The notes under the pieces are model-generated. The model was not told where the DNA came from and did not search any database. It was given only the letters and a program-made list of their open reading frames with translations. The translations under genes and the position numbers were made by a program. Below, piece after piece: positions 10,131 to 59,720 of a stretch of DNA of 64,000 nucleotides; within the stretch, counting starts at the first letter, position 1; each line of letters begins with the position of its first letter. Source of the stretch: an uncultured Gammaproteobacteria bacterium. Its GTDB lineage: Bacteria; Patescibacteriota; Patescibacteriia; UBA9570. Location: NCBI GenBank assembly GCA_964385285.1, contig CAYLOJ010000001.1:88537-152536 (forward strand). Direction: 5' to 3'.

Positions 10131-10977
10131 ACCTCTTCATCTCTTAGACACAACGCAGTTCGATCGTGCTTGGTTGGAACGCTGTTTTAATCGCGCGGCT
10201 GAATTCACTAGCAAAGGTTATGTGCATACCTTAACCGACAAAACGATCGCAACCTGCTTCTTTGAACCGTCTACACGTACCCGATTATCATTCACCGCTG
10301 CTGCCTATAAACTAGGTGCGAATGTGTTGGGCTTCGACAATAGCACCAGCACCTCATCTGCCAAAGGAGAATCTCTCGAAGACACAATTCGCATGGTGGC
10401 AAATTACAGTGACTTAATTGTAATGCGCCACCCAGAGGCCGGCAGTACTGAGCGCGCCGCCGCTGTATCGAACATACCGATTATCAATGCGGGCGATGGT
10501 GCGCACGCACATCCTTCGCAAACGGTCTTGGATTTATTTGCGATTCAACAGGGGATTGGCCGCTTGGATAATTTCACTATTGTCATGATCGGTGATCTGG
10601 AACATTCACGCGTCATTCATTCCTTGGTAGAGGCCCTCAAGTTATTTAAACGAGTGACCGTACAGCTCGTGGATCCGCGCACGCAAGATTACAAACCACT
10701 TCTACCCGAGGCCGATATTGTTCTGGTGACGCGCGTCCAACAAGAACGCTATGCTGACCCTGCAGAGGCAGAAGCATTCCAAAGGTCGTACGTGATTTCC
10801 TTGGAAGATGTCTTAAATATGAAACCGGAAGCAAAAATTATTAGTCCATTACCTCGCTTGTCTGAACTACCCACCACGATTGATGCACAACCTCAAGCCT
10901 ATTACTTTACACAAGCAGCCTTAGGCGTACCCGTGCGAGCAGCGCTATTAGAATATTATCTTGGCATATGGCAGTAA
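10120..10977 (+). CDS. pyrB: Aspartate carbamoyltransferase catalytic subunit
   Basis: STRTR carbamoyl-phosphate binding motif (FFEPSTRTRLSF) and the HPSQ / HxLP region. Confidence 0.85.
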   Translation: MNTKPLHLLDTTQFDRAWLERCFNRAAEFTSKGYVHTLTDKTIATCFFEPSTRTRLSFTAAAYKLGANVLGFDNSTSTSSAKGESLEDTIRMVANYSDLIVMRHPEAGSTERAAAVSNIPIINAGDGAHAHPSQTVLDLFAIQQGIGRLDNFTIVMIGDLEHSRVIHSLVEALKLFKRVTVQLVDPRTQDYKPLLPEADIVLVTRVQQERYADPAEAEAFQRSYVISLEDVLNMKPEAKIISPLPRLSELPTTIDAQPQAYYFTQAALGVPVRAALLEYYLGIWQ

Positions 10978-11951
10978 TTACACTGCCCGGCCTAATCGAT
11001 AGCCACGTCCATTTTCGCATTCCTGGCCAAGCCTATAAAGAAGATTGGATCACCGGATCGGCAGCCGCCTTGGCTGGTGGAGTAACCGGTGTGGTTGATA
11101 TGCCGAGTAATGTACCACCGGTGTTGACCGCAGACGATCTAGCCTCGAAACAGGCTTTAATTAAACCGAATGCAACAATTGAATACCGCTTGCCAATTGG
11201 TGTATCCGATGCCTCCATTGATGCCGCTTTAAATGGTCAGCACGCTGCCTGCGGCTTTAAAGTTTTTTTGCAGCCACACTCTACAGGCATGTACGTGGAG
11301 CAAGACGCTACCTTGCATACGCTATTTCAAAAGGCAGTAAAGCCGATCATGATTCACGATCACACTGGTGTCGATCGGATCCTTCCGTTTGTACGACAAT
11401 ATAAAAAACCAACGTACATCTGCCACGTTTCAACAGCTAGAGAGCTGACCCAAATCGCTCAAGCTAAGGCCGAGGGTTTACCGATTTATGCGGAGGTCAC
11501 TCTACACCATTTGTGGTTGGATCTGTGCAACCAAACTCTGGGGCACCGCGCGCAAGTGAATCCACCGCTGCGTACCGCGGCTGATCGAGCCGCGCTTTGG
11601 GCAGGAATTCGCAACGGGACAGTGGATACGATTGCCACCGACCATGCCCCACATCTGTTATCAGAAAAAGATTCTCCAGCCGGTGCAGCTGGTTTTCCCA
11701 GTATCGAACTCTTCTTGCCATTATTGCTCACCGGGGTAGCCCAAGGCCGCTTAACACTCACAGACATTGAGCGCTGTTGCGTAACCAATCCGACTCAGTT
11801 GTTTGGGTTCACTGGTCCGCGTGGCACGGTGACCGCGGATGACGCAGTTGTCTGGACCGTCACGGAAGCAGATATCAAAAGTAAATGTGCCTGGTCACCC
11901 TATTTAGGCATGGAATTGACTGGCAAGGTGCTACAAACTGCCTTGACGTAA
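10968..11951 (+). CDS. pyrC: Dihydroorotase
   Basis: LPGLIDSHVHFR HxH motif and DHAPH motif (TDHAPHLLSEKD). Overlaps pyrB by 10 nt. Confidence 0.8.
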   Translation: MAVITLPGLIDSHVHFRIPGQAYKEDWITGSAAALAGGVTGVVDMPSNVPPVLTADDLASKQALIKPNATIEYRLPIGVSDASIDAALNGQHAACGFKVFLQPHSTGMYVEQDATLHTLFQKAVKPIMIHDHTGVDRILPFVRQYKKPTYICHVSTARELTQIAQAKAEGLPIYAEVTLHHLWLDLCNQTLGHRAQVNPPLRTAADRAALWAGIRNGTVDTIATDHAPHLLSEKDSPAGAAGFPSIELFLPLLLTGVAQGRLTLTDIERCCVTNPTQLFGFTGPRGTVTADDAVVWTVTEADIKSKCAWSPYLGMELTGKVLQTALT

Positions 11952-12017
11952 CTACTGTTGTCTGAAAAAATCTTCCCACTAGCAACACTCCTGTTCGCTA
12001 GCACGGAGGATCCTACT

Positions 12018-12185
12018 ATGGATCACGACAGAGCCACGCGCATACCCGTTACACCACACACTGCCTCCACCACCACGGACGATCCTGATCACCCTGCCGC
12101 CATGAGCCTGCCACCGGGCAAGCGCAGCGCACAGGTGCCGGAACGGGCCTGTGGAGAGGTCGCCCTCCCGGTTTGGGAGTGGTAG
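12018..12185 (+). CDS. Small ORF (55 aa) inside GC-rich insert, preceded by a strong Shine-Dalgarno motif
   Basis: GGAGGA at 12005-12010, 7 nt before the ATG at 12018. Product MDHDRATRIPVTPHTASTTTDDPDHPAAMSLPPGKRSAQVPERACGEVALPVWEW has no recognisable family. The ORF track extends it 5' to 11958, but no Shine-Dalgarno motif lies there. Confidence 0.2.
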   Translation: MDHDRATRIPVTPHTASTTTDDPDHPAAMSLPPGKRSAQVPERACGEVALPVWEW

Positions 12186-12297
12186 CGGATTCGTAGTCGG
12201 AAGGGCAGGGCGGTGGTCTCAACCCCACTGCCCGCCCACACCCATCCCGCCGTTCAAACGGTATTTTTTATTTACCTGGTTTTCGTGTATACTGGCA

Positions 12298-12303
12298 ATA
12301 ATT
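12298..12303 (+). promoter_or_regulatory. Possible -10 box (TATACT) upstream of argH
   Basis: TATACT lies 26 nt before the argH ATG. No clean -35 at 17-bp spacing, so this is weak. Confidence 0.2.
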
Positions 12304-12329
12304 TGAATTATTAAGTAAGTGCACTCTGT

Positions 12330-13670
12330 ATGGCTCAACTTTGGAATAAAGGCTATAACATCAACCAAGAAATCCTTGAGTTTACGGTTGGAAATGATTA
12401 TGAGCTGGATCAGCTAATGATCAAGCACGATGTCTATGGCAGCATTGCACAAGCCGCCATGTTAACAAAAATTGGAGTACTAACGGCCGCGGAGTTCAAA
12501 AAAGTTCAGGATGCTTTACGCAATATCATTGCACTCTGGGAAGCTGGGAAATTTACCGTCCAGATGGAAGACGAAGATGGTCATACGGCTATTGAAAATC
12601 ATCTTGTCAAAACGTTAGGGGATCTCGGTAAAAAAATTCATACCGCCCGCAGTCGGAACGATCAAGTGGTCACAATGACACGCTTGTACACCAAAGAGAA
12701 GCTGATGAATGTCTACGGCCACAGCTTAACACTGGCTCAACACTTTCTAGATCTCGCCAAACGCTATCAAGCTGTCCCGATGCCAGGCTACACACATATG
12801 CAACGTGCCATGCCGACCTCTGGCGGTGTTTGGTTCAGTCAATATGCCGAAGCCATCCTGGATGATCTCGCGTTCTTGAAGACTGCCTTTGAATATAATG
12901 ATATGAGTCCGCTAGGCAGTGCAGCTGGCTTTGGAGTGAACTTCCCAATCGATCGCGCCTATACTGCCAAACTACTGGGTTTCAAAAAAGTGCAAAATAA
13001 TACGATGTACGTTTCTTACACCCGTGGAAAAGTGGAGGCAACAATCTTGTTCGCCTTAAATCAACTCATGCAGACCATGGCAAAATTTGCTAATGACGTG
13101 TTGATGTTCTCCATGTCCGAAACGGGCTTTGTGGAATTGCCGAAAGAGTACTGCACGGGGTCATCTCTGATGCCACAAAAACGAAACGGAGATGTCTTCG
13201 AGCTCACCCGCGGCAAAGCCAATATTATGCTAGGTCATCTGATTTCCAGTATTGAATTGCAAAATGTCCTGCTCTCTGGCTACAACCGTGATTCGCAGCT
13301 AACCAAAGATCTCCTAGTGAAAGCATTGCATCTCTACAGTAATACTGTAAAAGTGATGAGCACAGTAACCAGCGGCATTACGTTGAATGAGAAAAAATGT
13401 ATTGCCGCCTGCAGCCCCGAAATTTATGCGACTGACAAAGCCTTGGACCTAGTTAAACAGGGCATGCCTTTCCGCGATGCCTATCGCCACGTCGCAGCGC
13501 ATCTTGATGAATTAGAGGCGATTGATCCTGTTAAAAATATTAAACAGAAGCAGATTAATTTAAAACCCGCTACCGCTGCCTGGGCCAAACAATCACATTG
13601 GCTGACCACCGAACAAACCCATTGGAAGAAGACGATTCAAGCTTTACTGAAGTTGTCAAAACCCCAGTAA
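12330..13670 (+). CDS. argH: Argininosuccinate lyase
   Basis: Fumarate-lyase signature GSSLMPQKRNGDVFE, plus HTARSRNDQV and PGYTHMQRAMP blocks. These match ArgH rather than PurB. Confidence 0.85.
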   Translation: MAQLWNKGYNINQEILEFTVGNDYELDQLMIKHDVYGSIAQAAMLTKIGVLTAAEFKKVQDALRNIIALWEAGKFTVQMEDEDGHTAIENHLVKTLGDLGKKIHTARSRNDQVVTMTRLYTKEKLMNVYGHSLTLAQHFLDLAKRYQAVPMPGYTHMQRAMPTSGGVWFSQYAEAILDDLAFLKTAFEYNDMSPLGSAAGFGVNFPIDRAYTAKLLGFKKVQNNTMYVSYTRGKVEATILFALNQLMQTMAKFANDVLMFSMSETGFVELPKEYCTGSSLMPQKRNGDVFELTRGKANIMLGHLISSIELQNVLLSGYNRDSQLTKDLLVKALHLYSNTVKVMSTVTSGITLNEKKCIAACSPEIYATDKALDLVKQGMPFRDAYRHVAAHLDELEAIDPVKNIKQKQINLKPATAAWAKQSHWLTTEQTHWKKTIQALLKLSKPQ

Positions 13671-14612
13671 ATGGGTATAGTATTGCCAATGTCTACTGCT
13701 GTTACATTCCTCGGCAAGCGTTTTAAAAATCCGATCGTGCTAGCATCTGGCATTCTTGGTGTCACTGCTGCTTCCCTGAAACGCTGTGTCGATTTAGGTG
13801 CGGGCGGAGTGACGGTTAAATCGCTATCACTACAACCTCGTACTGGGCATGTGAATCCCACCATGGCCGGGCATGATTATTTTTTTATCAACGCCGTCGG
13901 ATTATCTAATCCCGGAATTGAGGAAGGGATTAAAGAATTAAAGAAATTCAAAACAATTTGTTCAGCACCACTCATTGGGAGTGTCTTTGCCGGCACCGTT
14001 CAAGAATTTGCGGATGTGACGAAACGGATTGTCACTGCACCGATTGATATTCTCGAAGTCGATATCTCTTGTCCAAATGTCGGAGACGAATTTGGTTCAC
14101 CCTTCGCCTATAGTGTAGATGCTGCCGTTGCCATTACGAAAGCGGTGAAGCGACAAGCCAAGCGCGTCCCCATCAGTGTAAAACTCTCACCCAATGCCTG
14201 GAATATTGGAGAAATTGCTGCCGCTTGTGAAGCGGCCGGTGCTGATGCCATTACTGCTATCAATACTGCCTCCGGAATGACCATTGATGCCACCTTCCAA
14301 GCCCCATTTTTGAGCAATAAGGTCGGTGGAATGTCTGGCCCAGCTCTCAAGCCCATTGCCTTAAAAGCGGTCTGGGATGTCCATTCTAGGCTCAAAAAAG
14401 CTCCAATCATTGCCACTGGTGGCGTGACCTCCGGCGAAGATGCTATTGAGATGATTCTAGCCGGCGGAACGTTGGTAGGTGTCGGTTCTGCAGCTTTCTG
14501 GCGTGGCGCTGAAGTGTTTGGCACAATTGTGAAGGAGATGGAGCAGTATATGAAAGCCAACAACATCAAAGAGATCAAAAGCTTGATTGGTAAAGCTCAT
14601 AAAGCCAAGTAG
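13671..14612 (+). CDS. pyrD: Dihydroorotate dehydrogenase catalytic subunit (class 1B)
   Basis: NPIVLASGILGVT...GAGGVTVKSLSL and the catalytic Cys in DISCPNV. Start overlaps the argH stop (TAAATG). Confidence 0.9.
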   Translation: MGIVLPMSTAVTFLGKRFKNPIVLASGILGVTAASLKRCVDLGAGGVTVKSLSLQPRTGHVNPTMAGHDYFFINAVGLSNPGIEEGIKELKKFKTICSAPLIGSVFAGTVQEFADVTKRIVTAPIDILEVDISCPNVGDEFGSPFAYSVDAAVAITKAVKRQAKRVPISVKLSPNAWNIGEIAAACEAAGADAITAINTASGMTIDATFQAPFLSNKVGGMSGPALKPIALKAVWDVHSRLKKAPIIATGGVTSGEDAIEMILAGGTLVGVGSAAFWRGAEVFGTIVKEMEQYMKANNIKEIKSLIGKAHKAK

Positions 14613-14614
14613 AT

Positions 14615-15418
14615 ATGAAACCCCGAGTTGCTGTACTAAAAAAAGTCACGAACGAAGCCAAGGATGTCAAAGGGTTTACCTTTGAGTTTGCGAACCTAAA
14701 CTCTCAGCCTGGTCAATTTGTCATGTTATGGATTCCAGGGGTGGATCAGAAACCGTTTTCCATCGCTGCCGATGATGGCAAGAGTTTTACGACCGTCGTC
14801 TTTAAACTGAAAAATTTTACCGAGCATCTCTTTAAGCTGAAACCAGGGGATAAGGTCGGTGTCACTGGACCATTTGGCAACCCCTACCATTGGAAACCCA
14901 AAAGCCATGTGATTGCGATCGGTGGTGGGTATGGGGCTGCGCCGTTAGCCTATCTCATTAATCGAGCCAAAGCCGATAACTGCAGTTATGAGCTATTGGT
15001 AGGAGCGCGCAATAAAGCCTTATTGCTTTATACAAATCATTTCCCGAAACATACTTATTTATCGACGAATGATGGATCGGCTGGGCACAAAGGGTTTATC
15101 ACAGAAGTGTTAGCTGAGCGTTTAGAACGACTGTCAAAAACCGAACGGAAAAATACGGTTGTCTACATGTGTGGTCCGGAGCCGATGGAATATGCTGCTG
15201 CTTTAGTCTGCAAACAATACGGGGTAGATAGTCAGATTAGTGTGGAGCGTTATATGAAATGTGGATTCGGGGTCTGCGGACAATGTTGCATCGACGATAC
15301 GGGTGAACGGATGTGCATCGAAGGACCCGTCTTAACTGGTAAGCACGCATTAACTCTTAAAGAATTCGGTCAGTATCATCGTGATAAATCTGGCCAAGCG
15401 CACACCTATGGTTCATAA
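14615..15418 (+). CDS. pyrK: Dihydroorotate dehydrogenase electron-transfer subunit
   Basis: FAD/NAD-binding fold followed by a C-terminal [2Fe-2S] Cys cluster (CGFGVCGQCC). Confidence 0.85.
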   Translation: MKPRVAVLKKVTNEAKDVKGFTFEFANLNSQPGQFVMLWIPGVDQKPFSIAADDGKSFTTVVFKLKNFTEHLFKLKPGDKVGVTGPFGNPYHWKPKSHVIAIGGGYGAAPLAYLINRAKADNCSYELLVGARNKALLLYTNHFPKHTYLSTNDGSAGHKGFITEVLAERLERLSKTERKNTVVYMCGPEPMEYAAALVCKQYGVDSQISVERYMKCGFGVCGQCCIDDTGERMCIEGPVLTGKHALTLKEFGQYHRDKSGQAHTYGS

Positions 15419-16013
15419 GGATCTTATCGACGCACTTTATCGTATTAACGCCGTCAAATTTGGTGAGTTCACTTTGAAGAACGGCATGCAATCGCCAATC
15501 TATATTGATTTGCGTGTAATCATCTCGTATCCAGATGTCTTGAAAATGATTGCCGGAGCCATGACGGAGCTGATTAAACATCACAAATTAGAATATAACG
15601 TTTTAGCTGGAATCCCATATACTGCATTGCCGATTACAACTGCGTTATCCTTGGAGCTAAACCAGCCAATGATCTACGCCCGCAAAGAAGCGAAAGCCTA
15701 TGGCACCAAAAAGAAGATCGAAGGCGCTTATACCGCCGGTCAAATCTGTTTGGTAGTGGATGATCTGATCACCACTGGTGAATCCAAGTTTGAAACGATC
15801 CAACCCTTTGAAGCTGAAGGGTTGATGATTCGTGATATCGTTGTACTGATTGATCGCGAACAAGGGGGCAGCAAAAAATTAGCCGATAACGGCTATCATC
15901 TCTATAGCGTGCTCACGCTAAATGATATCGTAAAACACTTAGTCAGCAACGGAACCATTCCGCCAGATTTAGAAAAAAAGATTCGAGATTTCTTAGCTGC
16001 TAATCATCTGTAA
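15408..16013 (+). CDS. pyrE: Orotate phosphoribosyltransferase
   Basis: PRPP-binding motif LVVDDLITTGESK. Start chosen at MVHKDLIDAL (KFGEFTLK follows). The ORF track starts at 15381. Confidence 0.85.
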   Translation: MVHKDLIDALYRINAVKFGEFTLKNGMQSPIYIDLRVIISYPDVLKMIAGAMTELIKHHKLEYNVLAGIPYTALPITTALSLELNQPMIYARKEAKAYGTKKKIEGAYTAGQICLVVDDLITTGESKFETIQPFEAEGLMIRDIVVLIDREQGGSKKLADNGYHLYSVLTLNDIVKHLVSNGTIPPDLEKKIRDFLAANHL

Positions 16014-16778
16014 TTGTGTATGACCTACGAAGCTAAATTACAAGCGGCAGTGAATCCAGCGGCGCGAGCGTTGCTCAAAACCGTTCTGGAAAAGGAATCC
16101 AATTTATCCGTGGCCGCAGACGTGACTACTTGTAATGAATTGATCACATTGATCCAGCAAACCGGGGATCAGATCGCTCTGCTCAAAACCCATATTGATG
16201 TATTGAGTGATTTCACTCCAGATTTAATCCCGACTTTGCTGGATCTAAAAAAACAATATAATTTTGTGATTTTTGAAGATCGGAAGTTTGCTGATATCGG
16301 CAACACGGTAAAACTGCAATACAGTGGTGGTGTCTATAAAATGGCTGACTGGGCAGATATTATTAATGCCCATGTGGTGCCAGGCCCAGGTATTATTGAA
16401 GGTTTATGGTCCATCGCTAAAGATAAAGGCGCTGGTTTGTTGCTCTTAGCGGAAATGAGTTCTGCTGGAAATTTGGCTAAAGGGGATTACACCAAAACCG
16501 CTGTACAGTGGGCTGAACAATACAGTGAATTTGTCATGGGTTTTATTGGCATGAAATCGCTCAGTAATAATCCACGTTTCATCACTATGACTCCAGGTGT
16601 GAACTTAGCTGATACCGGTGACGGCATGAAGCAGCAATACGTTACTCCTGAACAGGCAGTTCAAGGTGGTTCTGATATCATCATTGTCGGTCGCGGCATC
16701 TATGGTGCCAGTAACCCTGCTGAGGCCGCCAAACAGTACCGTGAAGCGGGTTGGAAAGCATACGCAACATTGCGATAA
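16014..16778 (+). CDS. pyrF: Orotidine-5'-phosphate decarboxylase
   Basis: FEDRKFADIGNTV, including the catalytic Lys, and the DxKxxD-type active site. Confidence 0.85.
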   Translation: MCMTYEAKLQAAVNPAARALLKTVLEKESNLSVAADVTTCNELITLIQQTGDQIALLKTHIDVLSDFTPDLIPTLLDLKKQYNFVIFEDRKFADIGNTVKLQYSGGVYKMADWADIINAHVVPGPGIIEGLWSIAKDKGAGLLLLAEMSSAGNLAKGDYTKTAVQWAEQYSEFVMGFIGMKSLSNNPRFITMTPGVNLADTGDGMKQQYVTPEQAVQGGSDIIIVGRGIYGASNPAEAAKQYREAGWKAYATLR

Positions 16779-47374: not shown

Positions 47375-49417
47375 TTAGGGACGACGGCGGCGCAACGAGA
47401 GCAGCAGAATCGCGACCCAACTCCCGCTCGAGGCGAACCCCAAACGGTTGTTGCAGCCACAGCCAGTGCCGTAGAGAACAACACCCTTGCTGCTCCCCGT
47501 GTCATCCATTCCGGAATCCACGATTCCAGTGTCGTCGGTGTCACCCGAATCGCCAGAGTCACCGCTGTCGCCGGAATCTCCCGTGTCGGACTGATGGGCA
47601 TCACTCCCATCACAATCCTGGTCGATCCCGTCGTCCGGAACCTCTTCGGCACCGGGGTTGATGGTGGGGTCGGCGTCGTCACAGTCTCCTGCATACTCGC
47701 TGTAGCCGTCACCGTCAGAGTCGTCACACTCCGTGGAATCGTCTGCCACGCCCGAGCAATCCTGGTCCACACCGTCGCACGTTTCCGTAGCTCCGGGATG
47801 GATGGACGCATCCGTGTCGTTGCAGTCATCCGTGGTGTAGCTGTCGCCATCCACGTCATCCTCCAAGCAGTCGAGGATGCCGTTGCCGTCCACGTCATCT
47901 ACCCAATCTTCATCGGTGTAGCTGTCGCAGTCGTCGTCGATGCCGTTGCAGGCTTCGATGATCGCAGGGGACTGGGCCGAGTTTGCGTCGTTGCAGTCGC
48001 CCGCATCTTCGCTGTAGCCGTCGGAGTCGTCGTCGTAGCAGCTCGTGCCCTCGTCGATCGTGCCGTCACAGTCCTGGTCCACACCGTCGCACACTTCCGT
48101 AGCGCCGGGGAAGATGTCAGACCGCGTGTCGTCACAATCGGAGCTCAGGTCGTAGCCATCTGCGTCGATGTCGTCGTCGTCCGTGAGACCATCACAGTCC
48201 TGGTCCACACCGTCGTAGGCGATTTCGCTGGCGCCGGGGTTGGTACCGGCGGCGTTGTCGTCGCAGTCCGTGGTGTAGTCGTACCCGTCACCGTCCACGT
48301 CGGTCAGGTCGCTGCCGGAGCAGTCCTGGTCGATCCCGTCGTAGGCCGTTTCCGGCGCGCCCGGGTAGGTGGAAGGAGCACTATCATCACACTCCTCACA
48401 GCCCATGTAACCGTCACCGTCCACGTCGTCCTCGTCGCCGAGGCCGTCGCAGTTGGAGTCCACACCGTCGCAGCTCTCGCTGGCGCCGGGGAGGATGGTC
48501 GCATCGGTATCGTCACAGTCGCCCTCGTCCTCCTGGTAGCCGTCACCGTCGTCGTCGTAGGCGATCGTGCCCTCATCGATGATGCCGTCACAGTCGTTGT
48601 CCACCCCGTCGTAGTTCTCGTAGGCGCCGGGGTAGGCGTCCGCGTTGGCGTCGTTGCAGTCGTCACAGGCCAGGTAGGTGTCACCGTCGGCGTCGACCTC
48701 GTCGCCAAGGCCGTCGCAGTTGGAGTCCACACCGTCGCAGCTCTCGCTGGCGCCGGGGAGGATGGTCGCATCGGTATCGTCACAGTCGCCCTCGTCCTCC
48801 TGGTAGCCGTCACCGTCGTCGTCGTAGGCGATCGTGCCCTCATCGATGATGCCGTCACAGTCGTTGTCCACCCCGTCGTAGTTCTCGTAGGCGCCGGGGT
48901 AGGCGTCCGCGTTGGCGTCGTTGCAGTCGGTCCCACCCACGTCAGTGGAGTCGTAGCCGTCACCGTCGACATCGGTCAGGTCGCTGCCGGAGCAGTCCTG
49001 GTCGATCCCGTCGTAGGCGATCTCGACTTCGGCGAAACCATCGGCATGACCGTTGCAGTCATTGTCGATGCCGTCACCGCAGACCTCCGTCGCCGCAGGG
49101 TTAACCGCAGCATCGGTGTCGTTGCAATCGTCGGACCCGCTGTATCCATCACCGTCGTTCTCATCGGTGGTGCACAGCGCTGCAGGCTCCCAATCTTCAT
49201 CGTAGAGCCCGTCGCAGTCTTCGTCCTCGGCGTCACCACACTGCTCGGTGGCACCGGGGTAGATGGTGGGGTCGTAGTCGTTGCAGTCGACGGAGTCGTC
49301 GAAACCGTCGAGATCCACATCCGCCGCCATGGCGAAGTGGGGGAAGAGGGTGGCGATCATGACCAGCAGGGCGCAAAGCGCTCGACAGGTCGACTTCTGG
49401 TTGAGATTGAACCGCAT
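47375..49417 (-). CDS. Cys/Asp-rich secreted repeat protein with MopE-type metal-binding repeats and a MYXO-CTERM-like tail
   Basis: GGAGG Shine-Dalgarno motif 5 nt before the ATG. Signal peptide. About ten repeats of DGDGY..DCDDxDAxxxPGAxExCDGxDxDCDG. C-terminus is DSGDSGDSGDSG...GCGCNNRLGFASSGSWVAILLLSLRRRRP. About 68-70% GC. Confidence 0.6.
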   Translation of the reverse strand: MRFNLNQKSTCRALCALLVMIATLFPHFAMAADVDLDGFDDSVDCNDYDPTIYPGATEQCGDAEDEDCDGLYDEDWEPAALCTTDENDGDGYSGSDDCNDTDAAVNPAATEVCGDGIDNDCNGHADGFAEVEIAYDGIDQDCSGSDLTDVDGDGYDSTDVGGTDCNDANADAYPGAYENYDGVDNDCDGIIDEGTIAYDDDGDGYQEDEGDCDDTDATILPGASESCDGVDSNCDGLGDEVDADGDTYLACDDCNDANADAYPGAYENYDGVDNDCDGIIDEGTIAYDDDGDGYQEDEGDCDDTDATILPGASESCDGVDSNCDGLGDEDDVDGDGYMGCEECDDSAPSTYPGAPETAYDGIDQDCSGSDLTDVDGDGYDYTTDCDDNAAGTNPGASEIAYDGVDQDCDGLTDDDDIDADGYDLSSDCDDTRSDIFPGATEVCDGVDQDCDGTIDEGTSCYDDDSDGYSEDAGDCNDANSAQSPAIIEACNGIDDDCDSYTDEDWVDDVDGNGILDCLEDDVDGDSYTTDDCNDTDASIHPGATETCDGVDQDCSGVADDSTECDDSDGDGYSEYAGDCDDADPTINPGAEEVPDDGIDQDCDGSDAHQSDTGDSGDSGDSGDSGDTDDTGIVDSGMDDTGSSKGVVLYGTGCGCNNRLGFASSGSWVAILLLSLRRRRP
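48440..48930. repeat. Near-perfect tandem duplication (~267-bp period, ~221 bp identical per copy) inside the repeat-protein gene
   Basis: The string ggccgtcgcagttggagtccacaccgtcgcagctctcgctggcgccggggaggatggtcgc...gcgttggcgtcgttgcagt occurs at about 48442 and again at about 48708. It encodes the duplicated 89-aa block DCNDANADAY...CDGLGDE. Confidence 0.7.
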
Positions 49418-49677
49418 GAAACCTCCGCGGTGTTAGCGTGAACCGAATTCACTAGACGAATCGGATCTGTAGTTATCTGTATCTTTTTTTGGGAAAGAAC
49501 ATTCAAACACAGCCCGCACCAATGATCTAAACTAATCACTCGTGTGAACTGTATTTTTGCCGTTAGACGGCTCGGCACAATACTAGATTTTAACCAAAAA
49601 GTCAAGCCATCATTGAGCAGGACTATAGACCTGCGGATGGCACGTAATTACAAAGGGGATGGAATAGAAAGAATATA

Positions 49678-53000: not shown

Positions 53001-53985
53001 CGATCGTTCCGCTTGGGAACAATTTATTCAGCAACAGCAGCCCGACACGTTTTTGCATAGTTGGGCTTGGGGAGAATTTCAAACTCATCCAATTGAGCGC
53101 ATAGCTGCCTACGAAGATGGCCAAATCGTCGGTTTAGCTCTACTGATTATCACGAAAGCTAAACGCGGGACATTCCTACTGTGCCCACATGGTCCTGTAA
53201 TCCTGCCAGAACGTTTAGATGCGATTCGTGCCTTATTAGCTTACATGGTAGAAGCAGGAAAAAAAGCAAAAGCGGATTGGGTGCGCATCGCTCCAATTCT
53301 TCCTGATGAGCCACGCTATGGCACGCCACTGGCTGCTTATAACTTTGTACGCGCGCCCATTCACGTTCATCCTGAACTCAGTTGGATCCTTGACTTAGCG
53401 CCAGACGAAGCAACGCTATTGGCGAACATGCGTAAAACTACTCGCTATTCGATTAAGAAGGCCGAGAAGGAAGGTGTGACTGTGCGTATCTCGACTGACC
53501 CAGCAGACCTAAAGATTTTTTATGATCTGTATCTAGTAACAGTGAGCCGGCAAAAGTTCCAGCCATTCTCTTGGGAATATCTGCAACGCGAATTTGAGCT
53601 GTTCTCGAAATACAGCATGCTAAAAATTGGTATTGCCGAAGAAAATGGCAAACCAGTTTCTGGTGCCATGATTGTCACCACTCCCTATGAAGCTTTTTAT
53701 CACCAAGGAGCATCCGTTACTGGATCTAAGTCCGTTGCCTCGTATCTATTGCAATGGCGCATGATTCAAATGGCCAAACAATCTGGCTGCAAAAAATATA
53801 ATTTCTGGGGAATTAGTCCTGATGAAAAACCTAACCATCCCTGGGCAGGATTAAGCCTCTTTAAGAAAGGGTTTGGTGGTAAGGCCTACCAATATGTTCC
53901 GACTGCGGATGCTGCACTGACTTGGAAATACAAAGTAAACACCTGGATTGAGCGCCGTCGAGCAAAAAAACGCGGCTACGCTTAA
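52978..53985 (+). CDS. FemAB-family aminoacyl-tRNA-dependent peptidyltransferase
   Basis: FLHSWAWGEFQ N-terminal block and typical length. GNAT-like duplicated fold. Start chosen at MALTVQ. Confidence 0.6.
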   Translation, partial: ALTVQTINDRSAWEQFIQQQQPDTFLHSWAWGEFQTHPIERIAAYEDGQIVGLALLIITKAKRGTFLLCPHGPVILPERLDAIRALLAYMVEAGKKAKADWVRIAPILPDEPRYGTPLAAYNFVRAPIHVHPELSWILDLAPDEATLLANMRKTTRYSIKKAEKEGVTVRISTDPADLKIFYDLYLVTVSRQKFQPFSWEYLQREFELFSKYSMLKIGIAEENGKPVSGAMIVTTPYEAFYHQGASVTGSKSVASYLLQWRMIQMAKQSGCKKYNFWGISPDEKPNHPWAGLSLFKKGFGGKAYQYVPTADAALTWKYKVNTWIERRRAKKRGYA

Positions 53986-55205
53986 CGCTTAGGTATAATC
54001 TCTGTCACGCCCATCATCATGGGTAGTAACACCTCTGGGATGCGAACCGTACCTTCTGCCGTCTGATAGTTTTCCATAATTGCGGCAATAATCCGACCAA
54101 TCGCTAAAGCCGTAGCGTCATTCATGTGGACAAACTCCAGACTACCATCTACTTTACGGACTTTTGTATTTAAACGACGAGCTTGGTAATCGCTCATGTA
54201 ATCGGCAGTGTGGGTTTCGCGATAAACGCCTTGGCCCGGCATCCAGGTATTGATATCCATTCCACGTGCATTCGGATCGCCAATATCACCGGTGCATTTT
54301 AATAGCAATTGATACGGCAGATTCAATTTTTGAAGCAATTCTTCTTCGATCGAAACCAACAACTGATGTTCGGCTAAGGCTTGTTCACCGGTACTGAAGA
54401 CTTCCATCTCTACTTTATGAAATTGGTGTAAGCGAATGATACCACGCGTATCTTTACCGGCGGCACCTGCTTCGCGCCGTAAGGCCGGTGAAAAAGCGAT
54501 ATAACGTTTTGGTAATTGCTCTTCGGGAATAATTTCATCCATATGGATCGGACCCAGCGTATGTTCAGCACTCCCGATTAAATAGAGATCATCTGCAGGC
54601 AAATAGTAGCGTTCGTCTGTGGGATGCAAGCGTGCCATCTTTTCAAAGACAGCTGGCTTAATAAAGATTGGTGGAATTATCGGGGTAAAACCTTTGCGCA
54701 CAGCCACACTTAAGGCCAAATTGACTAAGGCGTATTCCATCAAGGCCAGATCCCCTTTTAAATAAGTAAACCGAGCGCCGGAGACTTCAGCGGCTTTTTC
54801 ATTATCAATCACATCTAACGCCCTCCCTAATTCCCAATGAGGCTTTGGTTGAAAATCAAACTTGGGCTGTTTGCCCCACTCTTTCACAATTTGATTACCG
54901 GATTCATCTGGACCAACCGGGGTGTCGCTAGTGGGAATATTGGGAACAGTCCAAAGCAATACACGTAGCTGTTCTTCGACGTCCGTTAGTTCTTTTTGGA
55001 TCCCTTTGACTTTCACGGATAATTCTTTGGCACCATCCTTGCCTAACTTACGTTGCTCAGCGCGCAAGGTATCGTGCTCCCCTTGCAGATCTTTACGTTT
55101 TTGGTCTAGAGCTAATAACGCATCAATATCCGCAGTTGATTTTTTATTCGTCACCGCTTGTTTCACTAAGTCCGTGTGTTGGCGAATGAATTTAATATCG
55201 ATCAT
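53982..55205 (-). CDS. serS: Seryl-tRNA synthetase
   Basis: N-terminal coiled-coil arm (MIDIKFIRQH...) and class II motifs. Confidence 0.9.
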   Translation of the reverse strand: MIDIKFIRQHTDLVKQAVTNKKSTADIDALLALDQKRKDLQGEHDTLRAEQRKLGKDGAKELSVKVKGIQKELTDVEEQLRVLLWTVPNIPTSDTPVGPDESGNQIVKEWGKQPKFDFQPKPHWELGRALDVIDNEKAAEVSGARFTYLKGDLALMEYALVNLALSVAVRKGFTPIIPPIFIKPAVFEKMARLHPTDERYYLPADDLYLIGSAEHTLGPIHMDEIIPEEQLPKRYIAFSPALRREAGAAGKDTRGIIRLHQFHKVEMEVFSTGEQALAEHQLLVSIEEELLQKLNLPYQLLLKCTGDIGDPNARGMDINTWMPGQGVYRETHTADYMSDYQARRLNTKVRKVDGSLEFVHMNDATALAIGRIIAAIMENYQTAEGTVRIPEVLLPMMMGVTEIIPKR

Positions 55206-57240
55206 AGGCAGCTTGCATAGCTTCTAAACAAATCTTTAAACCATCTTCAATTGTCATGCCCACTAATTCTGGAGCGCGCTCAGTAATCGTGCGATCAATG
55301 GCTTTTGCGAAACTTTTATCTTTGAATTTTTTCACTAGGCTTTTTAACTCCAAATTCCGAACATCCTTATCTGGGCGAACAGCCGTTGCGGCCATCACCA
55401 AACCCGTAGACTGCTCAAAACAATACATCACTTTTGACATTAGAGATTGGGGTTCCAGTTTATGCATTTTGCCATTATGTTCTTTGACTGCAGCCACGAT
55501 TAATGGATGAATCCCTTTTTTCTCCAACCACTCCGCACCTACTAACGAATGTTGTTCAGGAGTGACTTGCGTATAATCAATGTCGTGTAACAAACCAGTG
55601 ATTCCCCAAGCCTCTGGATTGGCAGCCTGAAAATGTTCAGCAAATTTCTGCATGATTATTTCCGTAGCCAACATATGGCGGCGCAATTGCGGATCCAACA
55701 CCTCTTGCTGCATCCATTCTAGTGCTGCCGCACGCGTTATACCTGGTTCAAACTGGGTTAATGACTGATCAGATCCCGTGGCACCGGGAGCCTGCTTAGG
55801 ACGCAATAATGGAAACATGACGCACTCTCGAATCGGCTTATCCATCAAGAATGAGAATAAGCGTTCACTAACTCCAAACCCTGATGTGGGTGGCATGCCG
55901 TATTCTAAAGCCTCCACAAAATCTTGATCATGCATTTGGGCCTCTTCGTCCCCCGCTGCTCGCATATCTGCCTGATGCTCAAAGCGTTCGGCTTGGTCGA
56001 TCGGATCATTCAACTCAGTGTAGCCGTTACCTAATTCACTCCCAGCAATAATCACCTGATAGCGCTCCACTAATTCTGGATTACTTTCCATGCGTTTAGC
56101 CAAGGGTGACACGGCTACAGGATGATTAATCAAAAAGACCGGCCCGGCAATCGTTTTACGACATTGTTTCCAGAGCAGATCAGTTAAACGACCACGGCCA
56201 ACTTCAGCATCGATTTTTAAGCCCAGGCTCAGACATTTCGCTTTTAATTCTGCATCCGTTGCGGTTAACACATTGATTCCTAATTGATCGTTAACAGCGG
56301 TCACATAATCTAACTTAGGCCAGGGTTGAGCAAAGTCCACTGCAAACCCTTTAATGGTGAACTGCAAGGTACCAAACGTAGCCTGAATGACCTGTTTATA
56401 AAGTCGTTCCACCAATTCCATCGTATCTTGATAATTGGCAAAGGCCCAATAAAATTCCATTTGGGTATAGTCTTGCAAATGTTCCGGACTAATACCCTCA
56501 TTACGAAATTGTCGACCAATTTCAAATGTCTTTTCAAACCCGCCTACCATTAAGCGTTTCTGCCATAATTCTCCCATGGAAATACGTAAGAAGAGATCAA
56601 TATCTAGGGCATTGTGATGCGTAACAAATGGTTTGGCGTCTGCTCCACCCGGCGTTGATTCTAAAACAGGGGTTTCCACTTCAAGAAATCCTTCTGCCAT
56701 TAAAAATTGTCTGATGCTATTCCAGAAGGTTGCTTTCTTTAAAAACATCTCACGCAATTCCGGTGACAACAACATATCAACATAACGCCGCCGATAGCGC
56801 TGCTCCTCATCTTGCAAGCCAAACCATTCAGCTGGCAGAGGCTGTACGGCTTTGGTCAACATACTGATACGTTCTACTAAAATGGATTGCTCACCTTTAT
56901 GTGTGACGAAGGGCTTGCCAACGATCTCAACAATATCACTCACATCAAAATAACGCAGGTCAGCGTAGCTTGGCTGCTGCAACTCTTCTTTGGATAGCGC
57001 AATTTGCATGCGCCCAGTACTATCTTCCAAATGCGCAAACGTCAATTTACCATGCTCACGCCATTGGCGGAGTCGCCCGGCTAACGTAACAGTGGTGTTA
57101 GTCAATTCCTCAAAGTGACGCAACACAGCACCCACAGTGTGCGTGCGGTGACTAGCAGAAGGATAGATGGGTCCGATATTGGCGCGGTAAGCTTTGGCTT
57201 TCTCAATGCGTCCGGACCGTTCGTCGTGCGATTCGGCCAT
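55192..57240 (-). CDS. lysS: Lysyl-tRNA synthetase (class II) fused to a C-terminal HD-domain
   Basis: OB anticodon domain, class II motif 2 (FRNEGIS) and motif 3 (GFGVSERL) occupy roughly the first 490 aa. A ~190-aa extension follows with an H...HD signature (AEHF ... GLLHDIDY). Confidence 0.8.
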   Translation of the reverse strand: MAESHDERSGRIEKAKAYRANIGPIYPSASHRTHTVGAVLRHFEELTNTTVTLAGRLRQWREHGKLTFAHLEDSTGRMQIALSKEELQQPSYADLRYFDVSDIVEIVGKPFVTHKGEQSILVERISMLTKAVQPLPAEWFGLQDEEQRYRRRYVDMLLSPELREMFLKKATFWNSIRQFLMAEGFLEVETPVLESTPGGADAKPFVTHHNALDIDLFLRISMGELWQKRLMVGGFEKTFEIGRQFRNEGISPEHLQDYTQMEFYWAFANYQDTMELVERLYKQVIQATFGTLQFTIKGFAVDFAQPWPKLDYVTAVNDQLGINVLTATDAELKAKCLSLGLKIDAEVGRGRLTDLLWKQCRKTIAGPVFLINHPVAVSPLAKRMESNPELVERYQVIIAGSELGNGYTELNDPIDQAERFEHQADMRAAGDEEAQMHDQDFVEALEYGMPPTSGFGVSERLFSFLMDKPIRECVMFPLLRPKQAPGATGSDQSLTQFEPGITRAAALEWMQQEVLDPQLRRHMLATEIIMQKFAEHFQAANPEAWGITGLLHDIDYTQVTPEQHSLVGAEWLEKKGIHPLIVAAVKEHNGKMHKLEPQSLMSKVMYCFEQSTGLVMAATAVRPDKDVRNLELKSLVKKFKDKSFAKAIDRTITERAPELVGMTIEDGLKICLEAMQAAYDRY

Positions 57241-57247
57241 AGCAGGA

Positions 57248-57715
57248 TTAGGATACCTTTTTCAAGGTGTAGATGACTGCTCCTTTAGGAACGTTTACAG
57301 TGACTTTGTCACCAGCTGAGTGCCCTAAAAATGCCTTACCTAAAGGTGACTCATTTGAAATTTTACCGTTCGCAGGATCAGCCTCATTTGAACCGACTAA
57401 ATCAAACTCGTGCGTTTTTCCAGCAGGATCAACAACCGTCATGTGCGAGCCAATAACAACAGTTTTGGAACCTTTAGCCTTGGTAATTACTTTAGCATTA
57501 CGTAGACTTTCTTCCAACTCTAATACTTTGGTTTCCATTAAGGCTTGTTCCTCTTTCGCGTCACTGTATTCTGCGTTTTCAGATAAATCACCCAACTCTT
57601 TAGCACTGGCAATGCGATGGGCAATTTCCTTACGCTTGGTGGTTTTGAGATACTCTAAATCGCTTTTGAGTTTCTCTAAACCTTCTGGTGTTACGTAGAT
57701 CTCTTTTTCTGTCAT
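57248..57715 (-). CDS. greA: Transcription elongation factor GreA
   Basis: MTEKEIYVTPEGLEKLKSDLEYL coiled-coil finger with acidic tip residues, plus an FKBP-like C-terminus. Confidence 0.85.
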   Translation of the reverse strand: MTEKEIYVTPEGLEKLKSDLEYLKTTKRKEIAHRIASAKELGDLSENAEYSDAKEEQALMETKVLELEESLRNAKVITKAKGSKTVVIGSHMTVVDPAGKTHEFDLVGSNEADPANGKISNESPLGKAFLGHSAGDKVTVNVPKGAVIYTLKKVS

Positions 57716-57737
57716 AATCCACAGTATTGTACTTTGG

Positions 57738-59720
57738 CTAGTCTGTACTGTCAATACTGTATTGGCTCAATACAGCTTTAGCTACTGGAACAGCCGCTTC
57801 GGTGCCATCACCACCCTCTTCGATTAAAATGGATAGCACTAACTTGGGCTCCTCATAAGGAGCAAACGTGGTATACCAAGAATGCTTCTTGCCAGACTCT
57901 CCAATTTCAGCTGTGCCCGTTTTTCCGGCAGAGCTATAGGGTAAACCGCCTAAGCTGCGAGCACTGCCGCTCAAGACTGCTTCGCGCATACCTGCTCGCA
58001 CAACTGCCAGGTTGCTGGCATCAACAATATTCGCTCTTTTAATGACTGGCTCGGTTGCAGTTACTACCTGGCCCGTCTGATCAGCAATATGGTCTACTAA
58101 TTCCGGCTCGTAGAGCGTACCGCCGTTGGCAACCACCATGGTATACAGCGCTACTTGCAGAGGTGTAACCAGTAAATCACCTTGACCAATAGACACATGA
58201 TAGGTGTCCCCTAAATACCAATCTTCACCCTTAACGGTTTCCTTCCAAGTTGGATTAGGTACAAATCCATCGGCCTCACCCGTCAAATCAATACCACTCG
58301 TTTCTCCCAGCCCAAATAACTGTGCATAATGATCAATCCGATCAATTCCTAAGCCACCATTTATCTCCCGTGCTTCTTTATCATAGGTACCACCCCCAGC
58401 TAAATAGAAATAGGTATTCACCGATTCTGCAATCGCTTTATAGATATTGGTAACACCATGTCCACCCGCTTTCCAATCTGGAAAATCTGGATAAGTAGAG
58501 CAGTTAATACACAAACCACCCGTACTACTTACAGTCGTGCTCGGTGTCACCACACCTTCTTGCAGCGCTGCTGACGCTACTACTAATTTAAATGTGGAGC
58601 CGGATGGATATTCGCCAGAGATCGCCTTATCAAAGAGTGGTTTGCGAACATCATTTAATAAACTAGCATACGTTTCAGAGGTGATCCCTTGAATAAACAG
58701 ATTAGGATCATAGCTTGGGTAACTGACAAGCGCCCTCACCTTACCAGTGCGTGGATCCAAGGCAACGGCCGCACCACCGGGTAACCCTCGTGCATCCACC
58801 ACTTTTTTGATTTCATCATATAACAGCTGCTGTAAATGACCGTCGATACTTAGCACAATATTGCCACCCGGTATGGCCTGCTCTTCAGCAATGGTATTTA
58901 ACGCGCGTCCACCTGCGGTCATCTCTTTGGCAATACTACCTTTCTGACCACGCAAGACATCTTCATAGGTGGATTCTAATCCAGTCTTACCGATATGATC
59001 TGAGAGGTCATAATCATCGGATAATTCATCCTCTAGATCTTCAGGGCTAATACGACCCAAGTATCCAATGATGGGAGCGTATAACTCTGGTTTTAAATAA
59101 TGACGAGCGGCTTGTGCCTCAATATGCACGCCCGGAACCGCTTTAAATTTTGCCATTAAATTAATAGCCTGGTCATGGGGAATAAATTCTTTCAGCACTA
59201 GCGGTTGATTGTAATATAACTCAGCATGTTCGGCGACATCCGACTGCAGTTGATCAAACGGTAACTCTAACGTTGTGGCGATGGTAGCCAACGTTTGCAT
59301 ATAGGCACTGTCTGGAGGATACGGCAGAGTTTTGGGAGGATCAGGCAACTCAGTTGGAATAACGGTGGCAATAAAGTTTGGCTCATTTTTCACTAATGCT
59401 TCGCCCTGAAGATCATAGATAATTCCACGTGCGGCTGGAATGGCTGTGATCTGCAAACGATTATCATCAGCCTGCGATCGGTAATCGGCACCATGAATAA
59501 TCTGTAAATAACCAGCTCTAGCCAGTAACACAAGGCAACCAAAGACCATGACCGTACCCAACCAACGCACACGCCAACTGGGAAGTGCGCTGGTTAAATA
59601 GGAAGTTGGAACCGATGGGTCGATGGGAGCTTTATCCAACACATGAGAGCTGTAGTAGGAACCCAGCTTACTATCTTTAATTCTAGAACCACCTTCCCAG
59701 GGATTAAACAAATCGCTCAT
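57738..59720 (-). CDS. mrdA: Penicillin-binding protein 2 (peptidoglycan D,D-transpeptidase)
   Basis: N-terminal transmembrane anchor, dimerisation domain, SxxK (STFK), SxN and KTG motifs. Located immediately downstream of mreD. Confidence 0.8.
   Translation of the reverse strand: MSDLFNPWEGGSRIKDSKLGSYYSSHVLDKAPIDPSVPTSYLTSALPSWRVRWLGTVMVFGCLVLLARAGYLQIIHGADYRSQADDNRLQITAIPAARGIIYDLQGEALVKNEPNFIATVIPTELPDPPKTLPYPPDSAYMQTLATIATTLELPFDQLQSDVAEHAELYYNQPLVLKEFIPHDQAINLMAKFKAVPGVHIEAQAARHYLKPELYAPIIGYLGRISPEDLEDELSDDYDLSDHIGKTGLESTYEDVLRGQKGSIAKEMTAGGRALNTIAEEQAIPGGNIVLSIDGHLQQLLYDEIKKVVDARGLPGGAAVALDPRTGKVRALVSYPSYDPNLFIQGITSETYASLLNDVRKPLFDKAISGEYPSGSTFKLVVASAALQEGVVTPSTTVSSTGGLCINCSTYPDFPDWKAGGHGVTNIYKAIAESVNTYFYLAGGGTYDKEAREINGGLGIDRIDHYAQLFGLGETSGIDLTGEADGFVPNPTWKETVKGEDWYLGDTYHVSIGQGDLLVTPLQVALYTMVVANGGTLYEPELVDHIADQTGQVVTATEPVIKRANIVDASNLAVVRAGMREAVLSGSARSLGGLPYSSAGKTGTAEIGESGKKHSWYTTFAPYEEPKLVLSILIEEGGDGTEAAVPVAKAVLSQYSIDSTD

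Follow-up and report, generated by a model that had tools for sequence, protein, structure and literature searches.

We analysed a 64,000-nt stretch of contig CAYLOJ010000001.1 (positions 88,537 to 152,536; hereafter the window), from an uncultured bacterium that GTDB places in the Patescibacteriota (UBA9570), in which the lysS gene for lysyl-tRNA synthetase (LysRS) runs on in frame into a C-terminal HD domain, a predicted metal-dependent phosphohydrolase. The strongest result of this analysis is that, as comparison of sequences from different lineages indicates, the coupling of this HD domain to lysS arose repeatedly. The most likely role of the added domain, to which we assign a probability of roughly 0.4, would be the hydrolysis in cis of the diadenosine tetraphosphate (Ap4A) and other dinucleoside tetraphosphates (Np4N) made by LysRS itself, an assignment of substrate that draws on analogy with known systems.

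The lysS::HD fusion and its recurrence

The original prediction had described a LysRS of about 490 aa followed by about 190 aa of HD domain, and the measured layout agrees closely with it, comprising 482 aa of LysRS, an 18-aa linker and 182 aa of HD domain. The features of the gene are as follows (nucleotide positions are those of the window, residues those of the full-length product):

55192..57240, minus strand: complete lysS::HD open reading frame (ORF), 682 aa plus stop; uninterrupted and ATG-started, with a 100%-identical protein (P0001) in the public collection, on a 158-kb NCBI contig
55795..57240, minus strand: class II LysRS, residues 1-482 (Pfam PF01336 and PF00152; NCBIfam TIGR00499 and PRK00484)
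55741..55794, minus strand: flexible linker, about residues 483-500, about 18 aa, KQAPGATGSDQSLTQFEP (low predicted local distance difference test, pLDDT, in the full-length AlphaFold2, AF2, model; variable among homologues)
55195..55740, minus strand: predicted HD/HDIG metal-dependent phosphohydrolase domain, about residues 501-682 (Pfam HD and NCBIfam HDIG above cutoff)
55414..55677, minus strand: predicted dinuclear metal-ligand set, H522 to E609 (conservation in 35 fusion extensions and 85 family members)
55291..55341, minus strand: conserved basic/aromatic motif S634-x2-K637-K638-F-K640-D-K642-x-F644-A645-x4-R650 (alignment of 85 sequences)

The LysRS part of the product, which runs from an N-terminal helix through the OB domain and the catalytic core to a terminal conserved FPLLRPK, was recognised by Pfam as an OB anticodon-binding domain at residues 51-127 (PF01336) and a class II core at residues 144-478 (PF00152; E 2e-71). 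Over residues 5-482, the LysRS equivalog model of NCBIfam (TIGR00499, lysS_bact) scored 479.4 bits (cutoff 427.6), and PRK00484 scored 531 (cutoff 468). The extension was matched by the Pfam HD model (PF01966) at residues 521-599, with 32.7 bits in the full protein and up to 34.9 bits (cutoff 22), and by the HDIG model (TIGR00277) with 36-39 bits (cutoff 27.6), so that the product belongs both to class II LysRS and to the HD/HDIG superfamily.

In a homologue search that covered 5.8 billion proteins, more than 80 distinct clusters with the LysRS+HD architecture were found (675-720 aa; 48-81% identity). These clusters were drawn from NCBI, JGI, ENA and Logan assemblies and are named Kerfeld-, Falkow-, Magasanik-, Jackson- or Gribaldobacteria or "Patescibacteria group", with Uhrbacteria also represented. 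By these matches, the window stems from a Kerfeldbacteria-like Patescibacteria genome. Separate HD genes beside lysS, which the original prediction had suggested looking for in relatives, are present as well. In Parcubacteria GW2011_GWC2_39_14, lysS is unfused (494 aa) and a 192-aa HD gene lies 14 nt upstream of it (L004), and the order mreB-mreC-mreD-PBP2-greA-HD-lysS-serS, which corresponds to the synteny of the window, was found on 13 contigs from several sources (L004-L006). In a Saccharibacteria genome (L024), a separate 186-aa HD gene follows 80 nt after lysS. A second apparent split HD gene, P0122, was rejected, as a run of N has split what is really a fusion: in L009 (4418-6627) this run lies exactly at the LysRS/HD junction, "LRPKK" is duplicated, and a false stand-alone 208-aa HD protein was called. 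The split arrangements, and the evidence from P0122 that assembly artefacts occur, though in the opposite direction, might favour the view that a frameshift or misassembly joined lysS to a downstream HD gene. This view is effectively refuted, because the same architecture recurs in more than 80 independent clusters from different assemblies, including the isolate genomes of Olsenella phocaeensis and Atopobium fossor, and because the frame across the junction (FPLLRPK-QAPGATGSDQSLTQFEPG-ITR...) is clean, its DNA being free of stops and of homopolymer tracts. The fusion is, as judged from these comparisons, real and under selection.

To survey linkage across genomes, GTDB species representatives were scanned, and the frequencies given here come from the sample of 80 loci listed. 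At least eight of these loci are LysRS-HD fusions, including Uhrbacteria, Jacksonbacteria, two Coriobacteriia (L054, Coriobacteriaceae; L055, Atopobiaceae) and one metagenome-assembled genome (MAG) labelled Gammaproteobacteria. The last of these (L028, 2456-4585) lies on a 716-kb contig of a MAG labelled "uncultured Gammaproteobacteria", and represents either a third lineage or a taxonomic mislabel. Within the Coriobacteriia the fusion is widespread and occurs in cultured bacteria of gut and mouth; it is carried by the cultured species O. phocaeensis (P0306) and A. fossor (P0327) and also by Coriobacteriales OH1046 (P0290). Among the matches listed, the HD domains of the Coriobacteriia fusions are nearest to a Coriobacteriia stand-alone HD protein (Collinsella, L083; 64-67% identity) and next nearest to Clostridia proteins, ahead of any fusion HD from the candidate phyla radiation (CPR). 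Since the HD domain is nearest to a local stand-alone HD and the LysRS cores are only 35-37% identical to that of the window, the sequences indicate that the Coriobacteriia fusion arose independently of the CPR fusion.

The lysS::HD gene lies in a tight unit with its two neighbours:

53982..55205, minus strand: serS, seryl-tRNA synthetase (ORF; the order lysS then serS is kept in relatives)
57248..57754, minus strand: greA (ORF; the same order with Pfam labels in L004, L007 and L009)

The start of lysS is 7 nt past the end of greA, and the ATG of serS lies 14 nt within the 3' end of lysS::HD. The gene order of the window is mreC-mreD-PBP2-greA-lysS-serS-FemAB-DegT, and the block mreBCD-PBP2-greA-lysS-serS is conserved in relatives; at the syntenic position of lysS::HD, a 79%-identical relative (L007) has its unfused lysS. 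The lysS::HD gene encodes the housekeeping class II LysRS of this organism.

Metal ligands, fold and family of the HD domain

Conservation within the HD domain was assessed in an alignment of 35 diverged LysRS extensions (alignment A1) and in a wider set of 85 fused and stand-alone sequences from about 15 phyla. The residues invariant in A1 are H522, W545, G549, H552, D553, D555, H564, H588, G613, P623, S634, K637, K640, F644 and R650, with E609 near-invariant. In the set of 85, conservation remained at 100% for H522, H552-D553, D555, H564, H588, W545, G549, G613, F644 and R650, as well as for position 609, which is always Asp or Glu; conservation of D624, the Asp of "RPDK", was lost. Of the ligands, H522 is encoded at 55675-55677, H564 at 55549-55551, H588 at 55477-55479 and E609 at 55414-55416, and H552-D553 together with D555 sit inside the motif GLLHDIDY (residues 549-556; 55573-55596). 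The motif at and after the HD pair reads HDxD[YW]E, with the second Asp invariant. The six-residue pattern H...HD...H...H...D is a sequence diagnostic of the dinuclear HD site (PMC8177086), and it was found in 85 of the 85 sequences. Because this ligand set is invariant in all 85 members, the HD domain looks catalytically competent, with activity and occupancy by two metals as predictions from conservation. Past the last ligand, position 638 of the basic/aromatic motif is Lys or Arg in all 85 sequences and K640 and K642 are conserved in more than 80%, and residues 634-650 are a candidate element for binding a phosphate chain and a base.

An AF2 model of the C-terminal 201 aa, built on A1, is all-helical (mean pLDDT 95.2; predicted TM-score, pTM, 0.91), which, together with the HD and HDIG matches and the conserved ligands, bears out the earlier claim of a C-terminal domain of HD fold with an H...HD signature. 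In the full-length AF2 monomer model, linker residues 479-489 have pLDDT below 50, whole-chain pTM is 0.59, and no fixed interface between the HD domain and LysRS was predicted. The length and sequence of the linker differ among the homologues in A1. Because the linker is disordered and AF2 gave no confident docking, we picture the HD domain as a bead on a flexible tether at the C-terminus of LysRS, a picture that derives from the model.

Profile searches indicate that the extension is a member of an uncharacterised HDIG subfamily that elsewhere consists of stand-alone proteins of about 185 aa. The stand-alone family is large (about 183-200 aa), its members of about 185 aa reach approximately 270 bits against the extension profile, and they are annotated as "HDIG domain-containing metalloprotein", "hydrolase" or "putative nucleotidyltransferase with HDIG domain". 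A HMMER search over 1.84 billion representatives returned 527 clusters at E<=1e-30, and LysRS fusions or their fragments make up about 28 of the best 150. Among the loci listed, no neighbourhood common to all stand-alone members was found, only lineage-specific contexts. In three CPR loci (L012, L015 and L016), the stand-alone HD gene has as flanking neighbours a PD-(D/E)XK nuclease-family protein and a conserved protein of about 415 aa with a PHP-like "DLHIHSKYSRATS" start and no Pfam match at E<=1e-5.

Proposed clearance of LysRS by-products and other possible roles

Aminoacyl-tRNA synthetases make Ap4A and Np4N when the aminoacyl-adenylate reacts with nucleoside triphosphates (NTPs) (PMC13627108; PMC13010140), and LysRS is their principal source of Ap4A (PMC13627108). 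LysRS forms lysyl-adenylate, whose reaction with ATP or another NTP instead of tRNA yields Ap4A or Np4N; in the role that we favour, the HD domain tethered at the source would hydrolyse these phosphoanhydride by-products, Np(n)N, and possibly Np4 caps, so that alarmone and cap levels would be kept low and might be adjustable. In principle, triphosphorylated RNA 5' ends might likewise receive an Np4 cap from a synthetase. HD enzymes frequently serve as the opposing or proofreading partner of a nucleotidyl-transferring enzyme, and the design proposed here may be likened to NadD-YqeK, an adenylyltransferase with an HD proofreader, and to Rel/SpoT or GlnD, in which a synthetase is joined to an opposing HD hydrolase.

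The closest functional parallel is with YqeK, a symmetrical Ap4A/Np4N hydrolase (Ap4A to 2 ADP) that also removes Np4 caps from RNA (PMC13627108). Like the LysRS extension, YqeK consists of one HD domain, all-helical and about 185-190 aa long, with the extended dinuclear ligand pattern, and it has a basic/aromatic region past the last ligand, with R133, F135 and F163 as the residues that hold the phosphate chain and distal base. YqeK can also be fused to an adenylate-transferring enzyme, although its partner is NadD rather than LysRS; in the NadD-YqeK protein of mycoplasmas, removal of the erroneous dinucleotide products of NadD by the YqeK domain has been demonstrated experimentally as proofreading (PMC9426524). 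The company that the LysRS-linked domain keeps suggests small-molecule nucleotides: a HAD-IA hydrolase sits between the LysRS and HD parts of one fusion (LysRS-HAD-HD, P0439), a Ham1 ITPase gene lies directly downstream of the fusion in L009 and overlaps its end by 4 nt, and a Saccharibacteria stand-alone HD gene adjoins a NUDIX gene (L017). No HD, NUDIX, HIT or ApaH-type protein that could be a second Ap4A hydrolase was found among 20 ORFs of 120-330 aa in the window, a result that is uninformative for the rest of the genome.

A number of observations weigh against this assignment, beginning with the failure of the kinship to YqeK on which the original prediction had drawn. In NCBIfam, the YqeK model (TIGR00488) gave no match in the window protein at E<=1 and matched only 1 of the 35 extensions (E 0.0042). 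The nearest curated models are generic HDIG (35/35), the HD region of RNase Y (32/35, with a best E of 7e-10) and, from the archaeal aTrm56-HD fusion (PRK12703), its HD half (29/35; best E 7e-11); TIGR00295 matched 24/35. Counting for the assignment, the sole sequence matches in the PDB are YqeK Ap4A hydrolases, but they are weak (E 0.006 and 0.03) and cover only the N-terminal H...HD segment. Foldseek gave no match against the PDB at E<=1e-3; its top match is again a YqeK (8wmy) and likewise weak (E 0.024; TM 0.46; rmsd about 10 Å), whereas YqeK homologues superpose at 0.7-1.0 Å over approximately 160 C-alpha atoms. Further Foldseek matches are the HD domain of the beta subunit of Escherichia coli glycyl-tRNA synthetase (GlyRS-beta; 7eiv, TM 0.47), the YqeK-like 2ogi and PgpH 4s1b (TM 0.51). 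YqeK coordinates its metals with H21, H50-D51, H83, H109 and D127 and holds phosphate with R18, K54 and R133, and its third His lies 33 residues past the HD pair, compared with 11-14 in the LysRS HD domain. R18 and K54 are without counterpart: the position three before the first His is Leu, and HD+3 is an invariant Asp where YqeK has Lys. In HD phosphatases in general, an Arg a few residues ahead of the first His, usually at -3, is strictly conserved (PMC8177086); in the family studied here -3 is Leu in 74 of 85 sequences, with Lys or Arg at -1 in 68 of 85 (80%). Membership in YqeK (COG1713/TIGR00488) is ruled out by the family model, the ligand spacing, the missing R18 and K54 and the poor superposition.

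Further points on the same side come from the distribution and company of the domain, along with the lack of a predicted fixed interface noted above. A relative with a 79%-identical LysRS and the same synteny (P0041, 479 aa; L007) has no HD domain and none within 8 kb, and P0054 (608 aa; LysRS 68% identical) keeps only the HD domain's decayed C-terminal half, an apparent intermediate in the decay of the extension. Since P0041 lacks the HD domain and that of P0054 is decayed, the module is dispensable for aminoacylation. In Clostridia, which would be expected to have YqeK as well, the stand-alone gene lies inside an RNase R/trans-translation cluster, secG-esterase-HD-rnr-smpB (L025, L032, L033, L040, L041, L051 and L086), with SmpB at at least six loci and RNase R at at least four. 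In Atribacterota, it lies near the gene for isoleucyl-tRNA synthetase, in the order ileS-LysM/M23 peptidase-HD-hsp20-dnaJ, at at least four loci (L059, L077, L087 and L090). Finally, in other lineages, modules of tRNA or aminoacyl-tRNA type, namely PheT-like B3_4, Trbp111-like tRNA_bind and DUF2000, are combined with the HD domain on LysRS: LysRS-B3_4-HD (P0077), LysRS-HD-B3_4 (P0106), LysRS-tRNA_bind-B3_4-HD (P0434, PheT-N-terminal-like), LysRS-DUF2000-HD (P0368 and P0480) and LysRS-HD-tRNA_bind (P0290), and P0075 is LysRS-DUF2000 with no HD. In CPR and Coriobacteriia, the C-terminus of LysRS thus acts as a landing pad for modules, these and the HAD-IA hydrolase, in various orders, which suggests multi-module quality-control synthetases. 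Ap4A hydrolysis is the most parsimonious guess at a substrate, with several co-fused modules and gene contexts pointing equally to tRNA or RNA; since YqeK decaps Np4-RNA, both the lysS and the RNase R contexts could be explained by a cap-directed activity of the HD domain.

The main rival, somewhat less probable than by-product clearance, is that the HD domain is a phosphoesterase of tRNA or RNA ends, acting on nucleic acid rather than on free dinucleotides. The HD domain of bacterial CCA-adding enzymes acts on 2',3'-cyclic phosphate or 3'-phosphate ends, and the LysRS-linked domain might similarly clear such phosphates from damaged tRNA(Lys) 3' ends, enabling recharging by LysRS; in another variant, it would trim or cleave RNA, as does the HDIG domain of RNase Y. 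This possibility is favoured by the ranking of the RNase Y and aTrm56 models, by the co-fused tRNA-type modules and by the stand-alone genes near rnr, smpB and ileS. The second Foldseek match is a domain that binds the tRNA acceptor arm, the GlyRS-beta HD (PMC8464048), and a dinuclear site lacking the -3 Arg is typically found in HD phosphodiesterases (PMC8177086). Both aTrm56-HD and RNase Y resemble the fusion in linking an HDIG domain to a tRNA or RNA enzyme; however, their methyltransferase, KH and transmembrane parts are absent from LysRS-HD, and the likeness is confined to the generic HDIG core, which alone aligns, at about 12-40 bits against cutoffs of 454 for RNase Y (TIGR03319) and 434 for aTrm56-HD, far under family membership. 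Moreover, the recurrent and specific link of the domain is to LysRS and not to CCA-adding enzymes, RNA ligases or synthetases generally, the basic LysRS-HD form has no accompanying KH or S1 RNA-binding domain, and the HAD, Ham1 and NUDIX neighbours speak for small-molecule nucleotides.

A rather unlikely alternative is that the domain is a hydrolase that cleans up nucleotides in general or degrades a second messenger, its link to lysS serving co-expression, with no substrate channelled directly from LysRS; candidate substrates would be (p)ppGpp or (p)ppApp, c-di-AMP or pApA, non-canonical (d)NTPs, lysyl-AMP and other acyl-adenylates. The family is mostly stand-alone over many phyla, as about 68 of the 80 loci listed have the HD gene alone with no LysRS within 4 kb. 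The best TM-score, 0.51, belongs to PgpH, a c-di-AMP phosphodiesterase, the acidic HDxDYE motif resembles the HDxxED of Rel/SpoT hydrolases, and members of the family are putatively fused to unrelated partners. In these putative fusions (P0378, P0402 and P0427), the N-terminal join is to an SRP54-type GTPase (FtsY/Ffh-like), and the C-terminal joins are to a PQQ-like beta-propeller and to AMMECR1, the AmmeMemoRadiSam system protein A. Enzymes of the YqeK type are also promiscuous, hydrolysing for example 8-oxo-GTP (PMC9426524). On the other hand, co-expression alone would hardly account for independent fusions together with adjacency in both gene orders, and the Rel/SpoT-type, HD-GYP and PgpH models were unmatched in Pfam and NCBIfam, with no HD_4 or RSH match at E<=1 in either.

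By-product clearance could be extended to a bifunctional switch, an Ap4A counterpart of Rel/SpoT that both synthesises and hydrolyses Ap4A/Np4N, although we hold this elaboration to be improbable. Under normal conditions the HD domain would cancel the alarmone and cap output at source, and oxidative or metal stress would inactivate the dinuclear centre and turn the synthetase into a net producer of alarmone. Rel/SpoT (RSH) and GlnD are alike in carrying a signal-making activity and a potentially destroying HD domain in one polypeptide, and in Rel/SpoT, as here, acidic residues follow the HD motif. They differ in that the LysRS HD domain has no sequence-family relationship to that of Rel/SpoT, which is mononuclear, and in that synthesis of Ap4A by LysRS is a side reaction of an essential synthetase with no dedicated synthetase domain; any reciprocal regulation would be hypothetical.

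Very unlikely is a non-catalytic tRNA-binding or regulatory appendage that helps LysRS to bind the acceptor arm in the manner of GlyRS-beta. An HD fold serving as a tRNA-binding module inside an aminoacyl-tRNA synthetase has a precedent there: in the bacterial, heterotetrameric enzyme the domain stands beside B3/B4- or body-tail-type tRNA modules, has lost the His-Asp pair (Ser393/Lys394 in E. coli) and functions in acceptor-arm binding and allostery (PMC8464048). GlyRS-beta occupies ranks 2 and 3 among the Foldseek matches, and the conserved basic KKKFK motif could contact RNA. In contrast, the LysRS HD domain keeps all of its ligands, sits on a flexible C-terminal tether and has free-standing orthologues; the six ligand positions are invariant in all 85 sequences, including stand-alone proteins without a synthetase, and a fixed surface for tRNA binding is hard to square with the flexible linker and the low pTM of the whole chain. 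A degenerate HD domain like that of GlyRS-beta is ruled out by the invariant His-Asp pair and the other ligands.

Window context and meaning of the fusion

Elsewhere in the window, a run of genes for de novo pyrimidine synthesis occupies 10120-16778 on the plus strand, with an aspartate/ornithine carbamoyltransferase fold, dihydroorotate dehydrogenase with an Fe-S/FAD subunit, a phosphoribosyltransferase and OMP decarboxylase, and an ORF of 1055 aa lies directly upstream (6963-10130). CPR genomes are usually described as poor in nucleotide biosynthesis, which makes this run noteworthy. Two ORFs on opposite strands, of 680 aa (47375-49417, minus strand) and 615 aa (47594-49441, plus strand), overlap almost completely, and at most one of them is likely to be a real gene.

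Fusions of a synthetase with an HD hydrolase, and HD folds on aminoacyl-tRNA synthetases, are already known, and in LysX, a LysRS-MprF fusion, a class II LysRS likewise serves as the platform for a second enzymatic domain. The second domain of LysX is an N-terminal membrane lysyl-phosphatidylglycerol synthase that consumes Lys-tRNA, whereas that of the lysS::HD product is C-terminal, soluble and predicted to be a phosphohydrolase. New here is the pairing of LysRS with an uncharacterised HD subfamily. A full-text literature search found no prior description of a LysRS-HD fusion, and in databases the fusion proteins are labelled merely "lysine--tRNA ligase".

To our knowledge, only some lineages have known enzymes for the turnover of Ap4A/Np4N and of the RNA caps derived from them (ApaH, YqeK, Nudix and HIT phosphorylases), and an HD domain wired to LysRS is a concrete candidate for the missing Np4N hydrolase in ultra-small CPR bacteria and in Coriobacteriia. 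If by-product clearance is the true role, this LysRS would be the first known case of a synthetase equipped with a phosphohydrolase of its own that acts against a side product. If the switch holds, the fusions with co-fused B3_4, DUF2000, HAD and tRNA_bind modules would form an unrecognised class of multi-module proofreading or signalling LysRS in CPR and Coriobacteriia. Should the domain instead act on tRNA ends, it would represent a new type of tRNA repair module, attached to a synthetase and acting in cis, and would be no less new. The link to LysRS also provides the first testable function for about 500 clusters of uncharacterised HDIG proteins, and since the fusion is carried by cultured Olsenella and Atopobium, the hypothesis is directly testable by biochemistry and genetics.

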